From the NCBI RefSeq assembly GCF_055900595.2, contig NZ_CM148325.1: DNA of 64,000 bases; one strand, given 5' to 3'. A program made the position numbers and the translations under genes. This document shows, one piece after another, positions 5,713 to 45,181 of this stretch; position 1 is the stretch's first letter; every line of letters begins with the position of its first letter. The notes under the pieces were generated by a model that worked only from the letters and a program-made list of their open reading frames with translations, had not been told where the DNA came from and did no database searches.

Positions 5713-6503
5713 TCGGTCGACTGCTTCGCGGCGGTTTTATGACCGCTATCTACGCGTACCTGTATATCCCAATCATTATTTTGATTGTGAACTCCTTTAA
5801 CAGCTCGCGCTTTGGCATCAACTGGCAGGGTTTTACCACCAAATGGTATAGCCTGCTGATGAACAACGACAGCCTGTTACAGGCAGCTCAGCATTCTCTG
5901 ACGATGGCGGTGTTTTCGGCGACGTTTGCTACGCTTATCGGTTCACTGACGGCAGTTGCGCTGTACCGTTATCGCTTTCGTGGTAAGCCGTTCGTTAGCG
6001 GAATGCTGTTTGTGGTGATGATGTCACCAGATATCGTAATGGCGATTTCGCTGCTGGTGCTGTTTATGCTGCTGGGTATTCAGCTTGGCTTCTGGTCGCT
6101 GCTGTTCTCGCATATCACCTTCTGCCTGCCGTTTGTGGTGGTGACGGTGTATTCGCGCCTGAAAGGTTTTGATGTGCGAATGCTGGAAGCGGCGAAAGAT
6201 CTCGGTGCCAGCGAATTTACCATTCTGCGAAAAATCATTCTGCCACTGGCAATGCCTGCGGTGGCGGCGGGCTGGGTGTTAAGCTTTACCCTGTCGATGG
6301 ACGATGTAGTAGTTTCTTCGTTCGTCACCGGACCAAGCTATGAAATTCTGCCGTTAAAAATTTATTCGATGGTCAAAGTCGGCGTATCGCCGGAAGTTAA
6401 CGCGCTGGCAACCATATTACTGGTGCTGTCGCTGGTGATGGTAATTGCCAGCCAGCTTATTGCTCGTGATAAAACGAAAGGTAACACAGGGGACGTTAAA
6501 TGA
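5709..6503 (+). CDS. potC: Spermidine/putrescine ABC transporter permease
   Basis: 264 aa membrane protein; 4-nt overlap with potB stop (translational coupling). Confidence 0.95.
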   Translation: MIGRLLRGGFMTAIYAYLYIPIIILIVNSFNSSRFGINWQGFTTKWYSLLMNNDSLLQAAQHSLTMAVFSATFATLIGSLTAVALYRYRFRGKPFVSGMLFVVMMSPDIVMAISLLVLFMLLGIQLGFWSLLFSHITFCLPFVVVTVYSRLKGFDVRMLEAAKDLGASEFTILRKIILPLAMPAVAAGWVLSFTLSMDDVVVSSFVTGPSYEILPLKIYSMVKVGVSPEVNALATILLVLSLVMVIASQLIARDKTKGNTGDVK

Positions 6504-7546
6504 AAAAATGGTCACGCCACCTGCTCGCGGCGGGTGCTCTGGCACTGGGCATGAGCGCCGCTCACGCCGATGACAACAACACGCTGTATTTCTACAACTG
6601 GACCGAGTACGTGCCGCCAGGACTGCTTGAACAGTTCACCAAAGAAACCGGTATTAAGGTTATCTATTCGACTTACGAGTCGAACGAAACCATGTACGCG
6701 AAGCTGAAAACGTACAAAGACGGTGCCTATGACCTGGTGGTTCCTTCAACCTATTACGTCGATAAAATGCGTAAAGAAGGGATGATCCAGAAGATCGATA
6801 AGTCGAAGTTAAGCAATTTCAGCAACCTCGATCCAGACATGCTCAACAAGCCGTTTGACCCGAATAACGACTATTCCATTCCGTATATCTGGGGTGCGAC
6901 GGCGATTGGCGTTAACGGTGATGCGGTGGATCCGAAATCTGTCACCAGCTGGGCCGATCTGTGGAAACCTGAGTACAAAGGCAGCCTGCTGCTGACCGAC
7001 GATGCCCGTGAAGTGTTCCAGATGGCGCTGCGCAAACTGGGCTACTCCGGTAACACCACCGATCCGAAAGAGATTGAAGCTGCGTATAACGAGCTGAAAA
7101 AACTGATGCCAAACGTAGCGGCGTTTAACTCCGATAACCCAGCTAACCCGTACATGGAAGGCGAAGTTAACCTCGGCATGATCTGGAACGGTTCCGCTTT
7201 CGTTGCACGCCAGGCGGGTACGCCAATTGACGTGGTATGGCCGAAAGAAGGCGGCATTTTCTGGATGGACAGCCTGGCGATCCCGGCAAATGCCAAAAAC
7301 AAAGAGGGCGCGCTGAAATTGATCAACTTCCTGCTGCGCCCGGATGTGGCAAAACAGGTTGCTGAAACTATCGGTTATCCAACGCCAAACCTCGCCGCGC
7401 GTAAGCTGTTAAGCCCGGAAATAGCGGACGACAAGACGCTCTACCCGGATGCTGAAACCATTAAAAATGGCGAATGGCAGAATGACGTTGGCGCAGCCAG
7501 CAGCATTTATGAAGAGTATTATCAGAAGCTGAAAGCAGGACGTTAA
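6500..7546 (+). CDS. potD: Spermidine/putrescine periplasmic binding protein
   Basis: 348 aa with N-terminal signal peptide (MKKWSRHLLAAGALALGMSAAHA); 4-nt overlap with potC. Confidence 0.96.
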   Translation: MKKWSRHLLAAGALALGMSAAHADDNNTLYFYNWTEYVPPGLLEQFTKETGIKVIYSTYESNETMYAKLKTYKDGAYDLVVPSTYYVDKMRKEGMIQKIDKSKLSNFSNLDPDMLNKPFDPNNDYSIPYIWGATAIGVNGDAVDPKSVTSWADLWKPEYKGSLLLTDDAREVFQMALRKLGYSGNTTDPKEIEAAYNELKKLMPNVAAFNSDNPANPYMEGEVNLGMIWNGSAFVARQAGTPIDVVWPKEGGIFWMDSLAIPANAKNKEGALKLINFLLRPDVAKQVAETIGYPTPNLAARKLLSPEIADDKTLYPDAETIKNGEWQNDVGAASSIYEEYYQKLKAGR

Positions 7547-7554
7547 TTCAGCAA

Positions 7555-7584
7555 GCGGGCGGTGGTATTACCGCCCGTTTTTTC
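7555..7584 (+). terminator. Rho-independent terminator of potABCD
   Basis: gcgggcgg-tggtatta-ccgcccg stem-loop followed by tttttt, 10 nt after the potD stop. Confidence 0.75.
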
Positions 7585-7650
7585 ATTTAGCAAGGATGTG
7601 GCTAATGTTGCTGTTATGGACGAGTAAACGCTAAAAGAGGCAGTAAATAT

Positions 7651-7747
7651 GCCAGATGCGGCGTCAACGCCTTCTCTGGTCTACGACACCCGCAAATTCA
7701 ATTCATTGCGCCCCATCGCAGGCCTGATAAGCGTAGCGCATCAGGCA
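7651..7747. repeat. REP/BIME-like palindromic units in the potD-cobB intergenic region
   Basis: gccagatgcggcgtcaacgcc... and gcaggcctgataagcgtagcgcatcaggc resemble enterobacterial REP sequences. Confidence 0.6.
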
Positions 7748-7759
7748 ATGCTTCCTGCT

Positions 7760-8581
7760 TTATAAGCCCTTCAGCAACTTTTCAACAAACTCTGGCACCA
7801 CCTGGCTTGCCGGGCCGTAATATTTCTCGGCAAATTCATTACCGACCTGACTCGGTTCAAGATTGAGTTCCACAGTGTGCGCACCATGCAGTTTCGCTTC
7901 GTGAACAAATCCAGCCGCCGGATAAACATGCCCGGAAGTACCAATGGCAATGAAAATATCGGCCATCGACAACGCCATATAAATTTCATCCATGCCGAGT
8001 GGCATTTCGCCAAACCACACTACGTGCGGGCGCAAGGGTGCCGGGAACTGGCAACAATGGCATTTATCTTCTGGCGTAACGTCTCCGGTCCAGTCGAGAA
8101 CCTGACCACTTTGCGAACAGCGAACTTTCAGCAGTTCCCCATGCATATGAATAACATTGGTATTACCTGCGCGTTCATGCAGGTTGTCGATATTCTGCGT
8201 CACCAGCAAAAAGCGATCGCCGAGAGCGTCTTGCAGTTTAGCTAGCGCAAGATGCGCGGCGTTAGGCTGAATTTCTGGCTGCTGTAGCTGTCGACGACGG
8301 GCGTTATAAAACGCTTGCACCAGTTCAGGATCGCGATCGAAACCTTCCGGCGTTGCCACATCTTCAACCCGATGTTCTTCCCACAGGCCATCTGCGGCGC
8401 GAAAGGTACGAATACCTGATTCCGCAGAAATCCCTGCCCCTGTCAGTACGAGTACTCTTGGTTTTTCCATTGCTTCCGGCACCACTTTATCTCTGAAAAA
8501 AATACGCTGACGCAAACGCTCGCGCAGGCGGCGTTTATTTTTACGAAAACGACTTAACCGATGACCCCGACGCGACAGCAT
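7760..8581 (-). CDS. cobB: NAD-dependent protein deacylase (sirtuin) CobB
   Basis: 273-aa [22 protein letters not shown]...[14 protein letters not shown]...; sirtuin Zn-binding Cys pairs present. Confidence 0.95.
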
Positions 8582-22297: not shown

Positions 22298-22435
22298 GTA
22301 GGCCTGATAAGACGCGAGCGGCGTCGCATCAGGCACATTGCCAGTGTCGGATGCGGCGTGAACGCCCTATCCGACCTACAGAATTTACAGAATCTGGAAC
22401 GCATCAGGTATCAGCAAGGTTACCTGATGCGACGA
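22298..22435. repeat. Cluster of REP-like palindromes, ndh-ycfP intergenic
   Basis: gtaggcctgataagacgcgagcggcgtcgcatcaggc, tgtcggatgcggcgtgaacgccctatccgacctac, catcaggta...tacctgatg. Confidence 0.65.
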
Positions 22436-28765: not shown

Positions 28766-28785
28766 ATAACACCTGTAATAAATAT

Positions 28786-28809
28786 CCTCCGGCATAGCCG
28801 GAGGTTTTT
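28786..28809 (+). terminator. IS200 end hairpin with T-tract (cctccggc-ata-gccggagg-ttttt)
   Basis: Perfect 8-bp stem plus TTTTT inside the IS right end; would terminate fhuE read-through; copy B equivalent at 35617-35640. Confidence 0.5.
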
Positions 28810-28885
28810 CAAATGCGCCTGTAAGGCTCTGTTACCAGCCGCGCCCTAACAGGCGCATACGATCTGACATTTGCATTCAACTTCG

Positions 28886-29344
28886 TTACTTACGGCCCGT
28901 AAACGGGCTGCCCGGATATGGAATCGATAACTGCTCCCCCATTTTATCCTCTTCAAGCTGGTGCTTTATGTAGTCCTGTATCTTCGCCGTGTTCTTACCC
29001 ACCGTATCGACATAGTACCCTCGGCACCAGAACTCCCTGTTTCTGTATTTGAATTTCAAATCCCCAAACTGCTCGTAAAGCATCAGACTGCTTTTCCCTT
29101 TCAGATATCCCATAAAGCCGGATACGCTCATTTTGGGTGGGATTTCCACAAGCATATGGATATGATCTGCGCAGCACTCTGCTTCCAGAATCCGTACGCT
29201 TTTCCACTCACACAGCTTTCTCAAAATACTGCCTATCGCCCTACGCTTCTCTCCGTAAAACGCCAGTCTTCGGTATTTCGGCGCAAAAACTATGTGATAT
29301 TTACAGTTCCAGCGGGTGTGCGCTAAGCTCTTTTCGTCCCCCAT
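28886..29344 (-). CDS. tnpA: IS200 transposase TnpA (Y1 HUH family)
   Basis: ORF 28886..29395; ATG at 29344 gives MGDEKSLAHTRWNCKYHIVFAPKYRR...HIHMLV (HUH)...CRGYYVDTVG (catalytic Tyr), ~152 aa. Confidence 0.92.
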   Translation of the reverse strand: MGDEKSLAHTRWNCKYHIVFAPKYRRLAFYGEKRRAIGSILRKLCEWKSVRILEAECCADHIHMLVEIPPKMSVSGFMGYLKGKSSLMLYEQFGDLKFKYRNREFWCRGYYVDTVGKNTAKIQDYIKHQLEEDKMGEQLSIPYPGSPFTGRK

Positions 29345-29420
29345 TGGGACCCCCTTTTGATTTCTTGTTTGACACTTGCAGTTGCCAGACCGCAAGGTGT
29401 TTTAACAAATCAAAAGGGGT
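29345..29420 (-). promoter_or_regulatory. IS200 tnpA 5' leader stem-loop that occludes the ribosome-binding site
   Basis: In tnpA sense, ccccuuuugauu pairs with aaucaaaagggg, which covers the SD immediately upstream of the ATG; described for Salmonella IS200. Confidence 0.55.
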
Positions 29421-29456
29421 TTTAATAACTGGCTCAAAGCTGAAAGCTTTCCGGAA

Positions 29457-29480
29457 CCCCCAGCCTAGCTGGGGGTTTTC
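29457..29480. terminator. IS200 left-end perfect hairpin (ccccc-agcctagct-ggggg)
   Basis: Perfect palindrome followed by tttt on the plus strand; IS200 ends carry hairpins that block impinging transcription. Confidence 0.5.
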
Positions 29481-29489
29481 TGTGCACAA

Positions 29490-35606: not shown

Positions 35607-36320
35607 TAATAAATATCCTCCGGCATAGCCGGAGGTTTTTCAAATGCGCCTGTAAGGCTCTGTTACCAGCCGCGCCCTAACAGGCGCATACGATCTGACA
35701 TTTGCATTCAACTTCGTTACTTACGGCCCGTAAACGGGCTGCCCGGATATGGAATCGATAACTGCTCCCCCATTTTATCCTCTTCAAGCTGGTGCTTTAT
35801 GTAGTCCTGTATCTTCGCCGTGTTCTTACCCACCGTATCGACATAGTACCCTCGGCACCAGAACTCCCTGTTTCTGTATTTGAATTTCAAATCCCCAAAC
35901 TGCTCGTAAAGCATCAGACTGCTTTTCCCTTTCAGATATCCCATAAAGCCGGATACGCTCATTTTGGGTGGGATTTCCACAAGCATATGGATATGATCTG
36001 CGCAGCACTCTGCTTCCAGAATCCGTACGCTTTTCCACTCACACAGCTTTCTCAAAATACTGCCTATCGCCCTACGCTTCTCTCCGTAAAACGCCAGTCT
36101 TCGGTATTTCGGCGCAAAAACTATGTGATATTTACAGTTCCAGCGGGTGTGCGCTAAGCTCTTTTCGTCCCCCATTGGGACCCCCTTTTGATTTCTTGTT
36201 TGACACTTGCAGTTGCCAGACCGCAAGGTGTTTTAACAAATCAAAAGGGGTTTTAATAACTGGCTCAAAGCTGAAAGCTTTCCGGAACCCCCAGCCTAGC
36301 TGGGGGTTTTCTGTGCACAA
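35607..36320 (-). mobile_element. IS200-family insertion sequence, copy B (714 bp), same orientation as copy A
   Basis: Matches 28776-29489; flanks diverge at 35606/28775 and 36321/29490. Confidence 0.9.
35717..36175 (-). CDS. tnpA: IS200 transposase TnpA (Y1 HUH family), copy B
   Basis: Protein identical to copy A; same RBS-occluding stem-loop at 36176-36251. Confidence 0.92.
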   Translation of the reverse strand: MGDEKSLAHTRWNCKYHIVFAPKYRRLAFYGEKRRAIGSILRKLCEWKSVRILEAECCADHIHMLVEIPPKMSVSGFMGYLKGKSSLMLYEQFGDLKFKYRNREFWCRGYYVDTVGKNTAKIQDYIKHQLEEDKMGEQLSIPYPGSPFTGRK

Positions 36321-42767: not shown

Positions 42768-42795
42768 TTAACTTTGTAACGTCATAGAGTCAAAG

Positions 42796-42950
42796 AAAAA
42801 GGCAGCCTGTGGTTGCCTTTTGCCAATAATTCGCACACATTGCGGGTTACTGCTTTATTTTCGTTCAGTGCTGATAACGAACATCAACCTGCAAAACGAA
42901 GCGCATAGTTTAAAATGGCTATCATCAATACGCTATATCTGTTGGAAAAA
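42796..42950 (-). ncRNA. sraB: Candidate small RNA SraB in the yceD-yceF intergenic region
   Basis: K-12 has sRNA SraB between yceF and yceD, codirectional with yceD (recalled). A terminator-like hairpin with T-tract on the minus strand (42796-42821) lies ~40 nt upstream of the yceD ATG; the 5' end is not determined from sequence. Confidence 0.35.
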
Positions 42951-42953
42951 AAT

Positions 42954-43538
42954 ATGCCTAAACTTATTTTAGCCTCCACCTCGCCCTGGCGTCGCGCTCT
43001 TCTGGAAAAACTGCAAATCTCTTTTGAATGTGCAGCACCCGAGGTCGACGAAACCCCACGCAGTGACGAATCACCGCGACAGTTGGTGCTTCGACTGGCG
43101 CAGGAAAAAGCGCAATCTCTGGCGTCACGTTATCCGGATCATTTAATTATTGGTTCAGACCAGGTATGTGTTCTTGATGGCGAAATCACCGGTAAACCGT
43201 TAACGGAAGAAAATGCCCGTCTGCAATTACGCAAAGCCAGCGGCAATATCGTCACCTTCTATACTGGCCTGGCGTTGTTTAATTCGGCGAATGGGCATCT
43301 GCAAACAGAAGTGGAGCCTTTTGACGTCCATTTCCGTCACCTGAGCGAGGCGGAGATTGATAATTACGTGCGTAAGGAGCATCCCCTGCACTGTGCGGGT
43401 AGCTTTAAGAGTGAAGGATTTGGCATTACGCTGTTTGAGCGTTTAGAAGGGCGTGACCCTAACACGCTGGTTGGTTTACCGCTAATCGCGCTGTGTCAGA
43501 TGTTACGTCGGGAAGGGAAAAATCCGCTGATGGGATAG
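42954..43538 (+). CDS. yceF: Maf-like nucleoside triphosphate pyrophosphatase YceF
   Basis: ORF 42915..43538; ATG at 42954 gives [20 protein letters not shown]... 194 aa (Maf family). Confidence 0.92.
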
Positions 43539-44820: not shown

Positions 44821-45181
44821 GTTTCCGTGTCCATCCTTGTTAAAACAAGAAATTTTACGGAATAACCCATTTTGCCCGACCGATCATCCACGCAGCAATG
44901 GCGTAAGACGTATTGATCTTTCAGGCAGTTAGCGGGCTGCGGGTTGCAGTCCTTACCGGTAGATGGAAATATTTCTGGAGAGTAATACCCAGTCTGTTTC
45001 TTTGATAATTGCGCTGTTTTTCCGCATGAAAAACGGGCAACCGACACTCTGCGCCTCTTTGAGCTGACGATAACCGTGAGGTTGGCGACGCGACTAGACA
45101 CGAGGCCATCGGTTCACACCCGGAAAGGCGTTACTTTGCCCGCAGCTTAGTCGTCAATGTAAGAATAATGAGTAAGTTACG
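44821..45181 (+). promoter_or_regulatory. rne promoter and long 5' UTR (RNase E autoregulation region); boundaries approximate
   Basis: Established: the K-12 rne mRNA has a ~361-nt leader containing hairpins that mediate autoregulation; 5' boundary here is by analogy only. Confidence 0.5.

Follow-up and report, generated by a model that had tools for sequence, protein, structure and literature searches.

Probable secondary loss of the ymfA-ycfZ gene pair between potD and cobB in an Escherichia coli chromosome

Variable presence of ymfA and ycfZ in Escherichia coli

The gene ycfZ (b1121) has been used as a probe on E. coli virulence arrays, where O45 PEPEC strains of one group had it and those of the other lacked it (PMC2749873). 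In a study of amoeba grazing, YmfA and YcfZ are both tabulated among membrane-protein genes sorted by strain group (PMC10304320), and ycfZ/b1121 has also been listed as "homologous to virulence factor" (PMC3091784). What PMC2749873 and PMC10304320 report on these genes in the passages concerned is their presence or absence only, and neither junctions, independent deletion alleles nor polarity are treated there. The empty site itself is visible in annotated public genomes, for example that of O157:H7 Sakai. The variable presence of ycfZ and ymfA is thus already known, and the analysis of a junction adds detail to this knowledge rather than a new kind of thing.

The locus described here belongs to a 64-kb stretch of DNA, hereafter the window, in which potABCD lies on the plus strand and cobB, nagK and lolEDC on the minus strand. 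This order is the same in the window and in the loci that are occupied by ymfA and ycfZ. The potD gene shares 96.6-98.3% nucleotide identity with that of other E. coli, and a stretch identical to the cobB of the window is annotated in strain Z0117EC0005 as encoding CobB WP_000952736.1. The original prediction, made from the letters of the window alone, had put 213 bp between potD and cobB, which is exact (7547-7759), and had stated that ymfA and ycfZ separate these genes in K-12. This is correct: MG1655 (NC_000913.3) has cobB as b1120, ycfZ as b1121, ymfA as b1122 and potD as b1123, and the same order is found in a second K-12 record.

Strain Z0117EC0005, whose spacer is 100% identical to that of the window, carries a prophage end (exonuclease, excisionase and integrase) that abuts potC (L001 1-2543). 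An integrase is also found upstream of potC in strain RM13322 (L090 1-830). In the window, potABCD is uninterrupted and lacks the prophage end seen in Z0117EC0005; the window therefore comes from a related strain devoid of a prophage of this type.

Elsewhere in the window, two 100%-identical elements of 714 bp belonging to the IS200 family (28776-29489 and 35607-36320) are found in the same orientation, 6831 bp apart, on either side of ptsG-ycfH-holB-tmk-yceG-pabC. Each includes a Y1 transposase ORF and a match to the Rfam family STnc490. The first insertion, in the fhuE-ptsG spacer, is common to 9 complete genomes. The second, in the pabC-fabF spacer, is missing in Z0117EC0005, which is the closest relative; at this site, an IS200 with 97.5% identity occupies the same position in 221 other genomes, which suggests that the pabC-fabF spacer is a recurrent IS200 target site. 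Matches to Rfam at gathering level correspond to naRNA4, derived from REP325 (22301-22376), to the SraB sRNA (42792-42960) and to the rne 5' UTR element (44821-45157). None of these is unusual, all being expected in this part of the chromosome.

The potD-cobB spacer of the window

The features of the locus are collected in Table 1. As predicted originally, the potD terminator is followed by REP-type palindromes before the cobB stop codon. The terminator hairpin is also present in K-12, between potD and ymfA. Between this hairpin and the palindromes lie two short segments that correspond to the two ends of the ymfA-ycfZ unit. The segment derived from the ycfZ end reads CTG TTA TGG ACG AGT AAA CGC TAA, and the frame of the predicted mini-ORF, which starts at the ymfA ATG, agrees with that of ycfZ C-termini (AALLWTSKR, then stop). 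After the ycfZ stop, the spacer consists of 15 nt, the first palindrome (REP1), 34 nt, the second palindrome (REP2) and 12 nt before the cobB stop.

Table 1. Features of the potD-cobB locus in the window
Feature	Coordinates	Strand	Basis or remarks
potD (spermidine/putrescine ABC transporter binding protein), intact	6500..7546	+	NCBIfam NF007048 PotD equivalog, 789.7 bits, full length
potD intrinsic terminator (12-bp stem, 4-nt loop, T run)	7553..7586 (stem-loop 7553-7580)	+	Terminator scan, inverted repeat
ymfA translation start remnant	7587..7607	+	Shine-Dalgarno AAGGA 7592-7596, ymfA ATG 7605-7607
Predicted nine-codon fusion mini-ORF (MLLLWTSKR, then stop), ymfA ATG in frame with the ycfZ tail	7605..7634	+	Translation
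Deletion junction TTG, assignable to neither side	7608..7610	+	7608-7611 left unaligned by BLAST; alignment by eye
ycfZ 3' end remnant (last seven codons and stop: LLWTSKR, then stop)	7611..7634	+	Homology to occupied loci
REP-type palindrome 1	7650..7685	.	Diverged; sequence comparison and predicted hairpin
REP-type palindrome 2, adjoining the cobB stop	7720..7747	.	Conserved across Escherichia; predicted hairpin
cobB (Sir2-family NAD+-dependent deacylase), intact	7760..8581	-	NCBIfam NF001755 Sir2/CobB equivalog, 597.9 bits

The window was compared by BLAST with five occupied loci, and those of K-12, D10, CCUG 73778 and S1-SRL-01-C were compared at the ycfZ end. On the left, a block of homology (7447-7607) runs through the ymfA ATG with 95.7-98.8% identity to the occupied loci. 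On the right, homology resumes at 7612-7615, i.e., 23 nt before the ycfZ end, and extends into cobB up to 7860. Where K-12 has 1221 bp (L002 3731-4951), the window has 4 nt. The occupied K-12 locus has colinear flanks that are 97-98% identical to those of the window and shares with it the potD terminator, the ymfA leader and the REP pair before the cobB stop; it differs by the 1247-bp ymfA-ycfZ unit, its potD-cobB spacer being of 1423 bp versus 213 bp in the window. All bases of the window spacer except 3-4 nt align to native flanking sequence in BLAST comparisons. Only loci of Escherichia contain the ymfA-leader and ycfZ-tail segments (0 of 74 non-Escherichia loci). No homologue of YmfA or YcfZ is detected by tblastn elsewhere in the 64-kb window (best E value 0.08).

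Taken as sequence evidence, these traces indicate that the potD-cobB spacer of the window was very probably left by one natural deletion, about 1.22 kb long, that removed ymfA-ycfZ. A secondary loss is favoured because the spacer retains the ymfA ribosome binding site and ATG together with the last 24 nt of ycfZ, all of which are absent from the empty sites outside Escherichia.

REP/BIME elements are imperfect GC-rich extragenic palindromes of enterobacteria, which are present in many copies and able to form stem-loops. The two palindromes of the window resemble them: they are imperfect, GC-rich, about 30-35 nt long and of opposite orientation, they lie between convergent genes and they are multi-copy in E. 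coli. Queries that contain them match a median of 9 places per E. coli genome, while queries limited to the junction match one place per genome; the REP2 sequence itself occurs once in the 64-kb window at up to 3 mismatches. The stem of REP1 is kept by paired changes (CCAGA...TCTGG in the window versus CCGGA...TCCGG in other strains). REP2 matches at 100% in the Escherichia loci L007-L012 and has a recognisable relative in a Salmonella spacer. In the window, they are bystanders, located outside the deleted interval and present with or without ymfA-ycfZ. The suggestion that REP elements mark the boundary of this indel thus fails for the window allele, both palindromes lying beyond the retained ycfZ stop, on the cobB side, and being equally present in occupied loci, and their role as its recombination substrate was rejected for the same reasons.

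Distribution of the pair and its deletion alleles

The history of the site was examined in 80 loci around cobB, with one genome per species (E. fergusonii not being among them), in which NagK, CobB, YcfZ, YmfA and PotD were located. Both ymfA and ycfZ are absent from all the 74 loci of Enterobacteriaceae other than Escherichia. In most of the Citrobacter, Salmonella, Enterobacter, Klebsiella, Kosakonia and Cedecea loci for which potD belongs to the fetched stretch, this gene is 34-214 bp from cobB. Both genes occupy the site in the GTDB representative of E. coli and in E. whittamii (L010); in E. albertii (L012), ycfZ is at the syntenic position, on a contig that ends inside this gene. These sequences place the insertion of the ymfA-ycfZ pair in an early Escherichia ancestor, at a point between potD and the two REP elements, and the pair was then lost repeatedly. 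The insertion is placed only at genus depth because Citrobacter, Salmonella, Enterobacter, Klebsiella and other genera lack the pair and mostly have potD beside cobB.

The convergent potD-cobB spacer of other Enterobacteriaceae can hold unrelated, lineage-specific cargo (among loci L015, L024, L026, L042, L048, L050, L055, L075, L074 and L080). For example, some Citrobacter carry there a gene for a PEMT/ICMT-like membrane protein of 168 aa, and several Enterobacter a gene for an EAL-HDOD protein, alone or together with one for a methyl-accepting chemotaxis protein. An amidase is encoded at this place in Cedecea and a membrane ORF of 107 aa is found in Superficieibacter. The potD-cobB spacer is a recurrent spot of gain and loss among Enterobacteriaceae.

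Within E. coli, the pair is present in 4850 of 5426 complete genomes (89%) and missing from 576 (11%). Adjacency of potD and cobB is likewise found in 576 of the 5426 genomes; this agreement, which is one of counts and was not drawn genome by genome, argues that the pair has not been relocated. The exact junction of the window is shared by only 14 complete genomes, whose sources are dog, human, cattle, goat, pig and food, and is therefore not an assembly artefact. Another junction, allele B, is found in 559 genomes, including those of O157:H7 Sakai (NC_002695.2) and O55:H7, and all the O157:H7 genomes examined lack ymfA-ycfZ. Three empty sites were assigned to neither of these junctions, and 23 loci are partial.

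Like the window allele, allele B has potD and cobB as neighbours and has lost the pair from the genome; its 155-bp spacer includes the potD terminator, a ymfA stub and REP2. It differs in that nucleotides 1-44 of ymfA are kept and joined to the spacer between REP1 and REP2, whereas the ycfZ tail and REP1 are lost. Of ymfA, only the ATG is kept in the window, but the ycfZ tail and REP1 are retained. Since each allele keeps what the other has lost, they result from independent events and neither derives from the other. The right breakpoint of the O157:H7-type deletion does fall between the two REP elements. The junction of allele B is also found, with the same structure base for base, in the unclassified Escherichia sp. 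E1V33 (L008 5823-5977; compare L003 3548-3702). Its sharing by E. coli and E1V33 implies either a very old polymorphism or a transfer of the empty allele between species.

Other states of the locus have been found. JSMCR1 has a larger deletion that extends from within potD into ycfZ. In E. coli E69 (L009), ymfA is kept and ycfZ is missing from codon 5 up to a point about four codons short of its stop, while only fragments of ymfA and ycfZ are left in Escherichia sp. MOD1-EC7003 (L011); these two are further independent decay states of the pair. The five deletion alleles have five different sets of endpoints. In addition, one E. coli genome carries IS1 insertions in ymfA-ycfZ.

Origin, age and meaning of the deletion

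The original prediction had left open whether the empty site was ancestral, with ymfA-ycfZ inserted in the K-12 lineage, or resulted from a deletion. The second possibility is supported by the ymfA and ycfZ stubs kept in the window and the first is not, the pair being present in 4850 of 5426 E. coli genomes and in E. whittamii. It is true that the empty arrangement is ancestral at the level of the family, most non-Escherichia loci having potD adjacent to cobB and none having the pair. However, that the lineage of the window never had ymfA-ycfZ, and that the pair was inserted only in K-12 and related lineages, is very unlikely: the window keeps coding remnants foreign to the non-Escherichia empty sites, the pair is found in 89% of E. 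coli and in E. whittamii, with ycfZ also in E. albertii, and an insertion beginning right after an existing ATG and ending 24 nt before an in-frame stop is not credible. The in-frame fusion of an ATG to the last codons of the downstream gene resembles a designed clean deletion, and could evoke an engineered knockout or a collapse of the assembly. Such an artefact is nevertheless the least probable of the explanations considered, given that 14 natural isolates, which come from several hosts and countries and whose complete genomes were sequenced independently, share the identical junction, that no FRT or other scar is present, all of the 213 bp but 3-4 nt being native flank, and that the allele has gathered substitutions of its own. 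The engineered knockout was rejected on the provenance of the carriers and the lack of a scar.

Removal of ymfA-ycfZ as a small island, through site-specific or IS-mediated recombination, is evoked by the variability of the potD-cobB spacer, which has different cargo in different genera, and by the IS1 insertions found in the pair in one E. coli genome. This mode of excision is nonetheless highly improbable. The occupied locus holds two CDS only, with no integrase, recombinase, transposase, tRNA or att-like repeat; no direct repeats bracket the pair; the breakpoints lie inside coding sequences; and the independent deletion alleles differ in their endpoints. A search of K-12 for direct repeats of at least 10 nt bracketing the deleted interval found none, and a deletion between direct repeats is unsupported, none having the right spacing in this strain. 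In the same way, BLAST detects no IS fragment or foreign scar at the junction of the window.

The favoured explanation, a single natural deletion, would have begun immediately behind the ymfA start codon and stopped some 24 nt short of the ycfZ end. Everything outside this interval is intact, including the potD terminator, the ymfA ribosome binding site, the short spacer that follows ycfZ, both REP hairpins and cobB. The event most likely involved RecA-independent illegitimate recombination, by replication slippage or end joining on a microhomology of 0-2 nt; we infer this because there is no repeat, IS fragment or att-like site at the junction. The breakpoint is ambiguous over 3-4 nt because the closest occupied allele among the 5426 genomes is only 92.7% identical over 7615-8000. 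The lost unit encodes YmfA, a DUF3592 membrane protein, and YcfZ, a TPM-domain membrane protein, and the cell would be expected to lack these two inner-membrane proteins, which are non-essential and of unknown function. Neither potD nor cobB should suffer a polar effect, since the terminator of the former and the REP pair downstream of the latter are both intact. The deletion of the window would thus be one of several independent losses of a pair inserted in an early Escherichia ancestor.

The age and the origin of the allele are a related matter. The REP-containing spacer of the window is 83-90% identical to that of every occupied allele examined, versus 97-99% for potD, cobB and nagK, and strain EC42405 carries the window junction beside a different cobB haplotype (96.7% cobB identity). 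The divergence of the spacer and this second haplotype indicate that the allele is old, recombined, or both. As a sub-case of the deletion, the empty allele might have been imported by homologous recombination from a diverged lineage of E. coli or Escherichia, which is possible but on balance doubtful. The gap in identity between spacer and flanking genes, the distance of the nearest occupied allele and the presence of the same junction next to another cobB haplotype in EC42405 are consistent with import, as is the occurrence of allele B in both E. coli and Escherichia sp. E1V33, from which it appears that such alleles cross lineages or are very old. However, REP sequences evolve fast and their high divergence may simply mean age.

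The occupied alleles of E. coli (L002 3728-4974, L090 3031-4277, and L004, L005, L006 and L087) were also compared for the divergence of the two genes. The ymfA genes of K-12 and RM13322 share 81% nucleotide and 74% amino acid identity, against 97-99% for potD and cobB in the same strain pairs. The ycfZ alleles share 89-92% nucleotide identity within E. coli, and in 3269 genomes the ymfA-ycfZ pair is only 90-95% identical to that of K-12. The pair is far more diverged than its flanks and has at least five independent deletion alleles; because of this, it could be seen as a fast-evolving membrane pair specific to Escherichia and under diversifying or antagonistic selection, whose clean loss would be adaptive rather than neutral decay. 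This adaptive reading is improbable; if true, the proteins could be exploited by, e.g., a phage, a toxin or a host factor. A role as a known defence system was also considered and has no support, a scan of YmfA (two allele types) and YcfZ against the PADLOC defence models giving 0 matches.

The feature is an ordinary natural deletion polymorphism, of the kind that makes gene content vary from strain to strain. The gene order of K-12 is not universal, 11% of complete E. coli genomes being devoid of ymfA-ycfZ, and the comparison across Enterobacteriaceae settles the polarity: the gain of the pair dates to the level of the genus, and repeated losses followed. This bears on arrays and virulome lists that use ycfZ/b1121 as a "virulence-associated" marker. 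As this gene can be missing through several unrelated deletions, neither its presence nor its absence makes a clean phylogenetic marker. Finally, repeated loss joined to extreme allelic divergence provides a modest lead on two uncharacterised membrane proteins.
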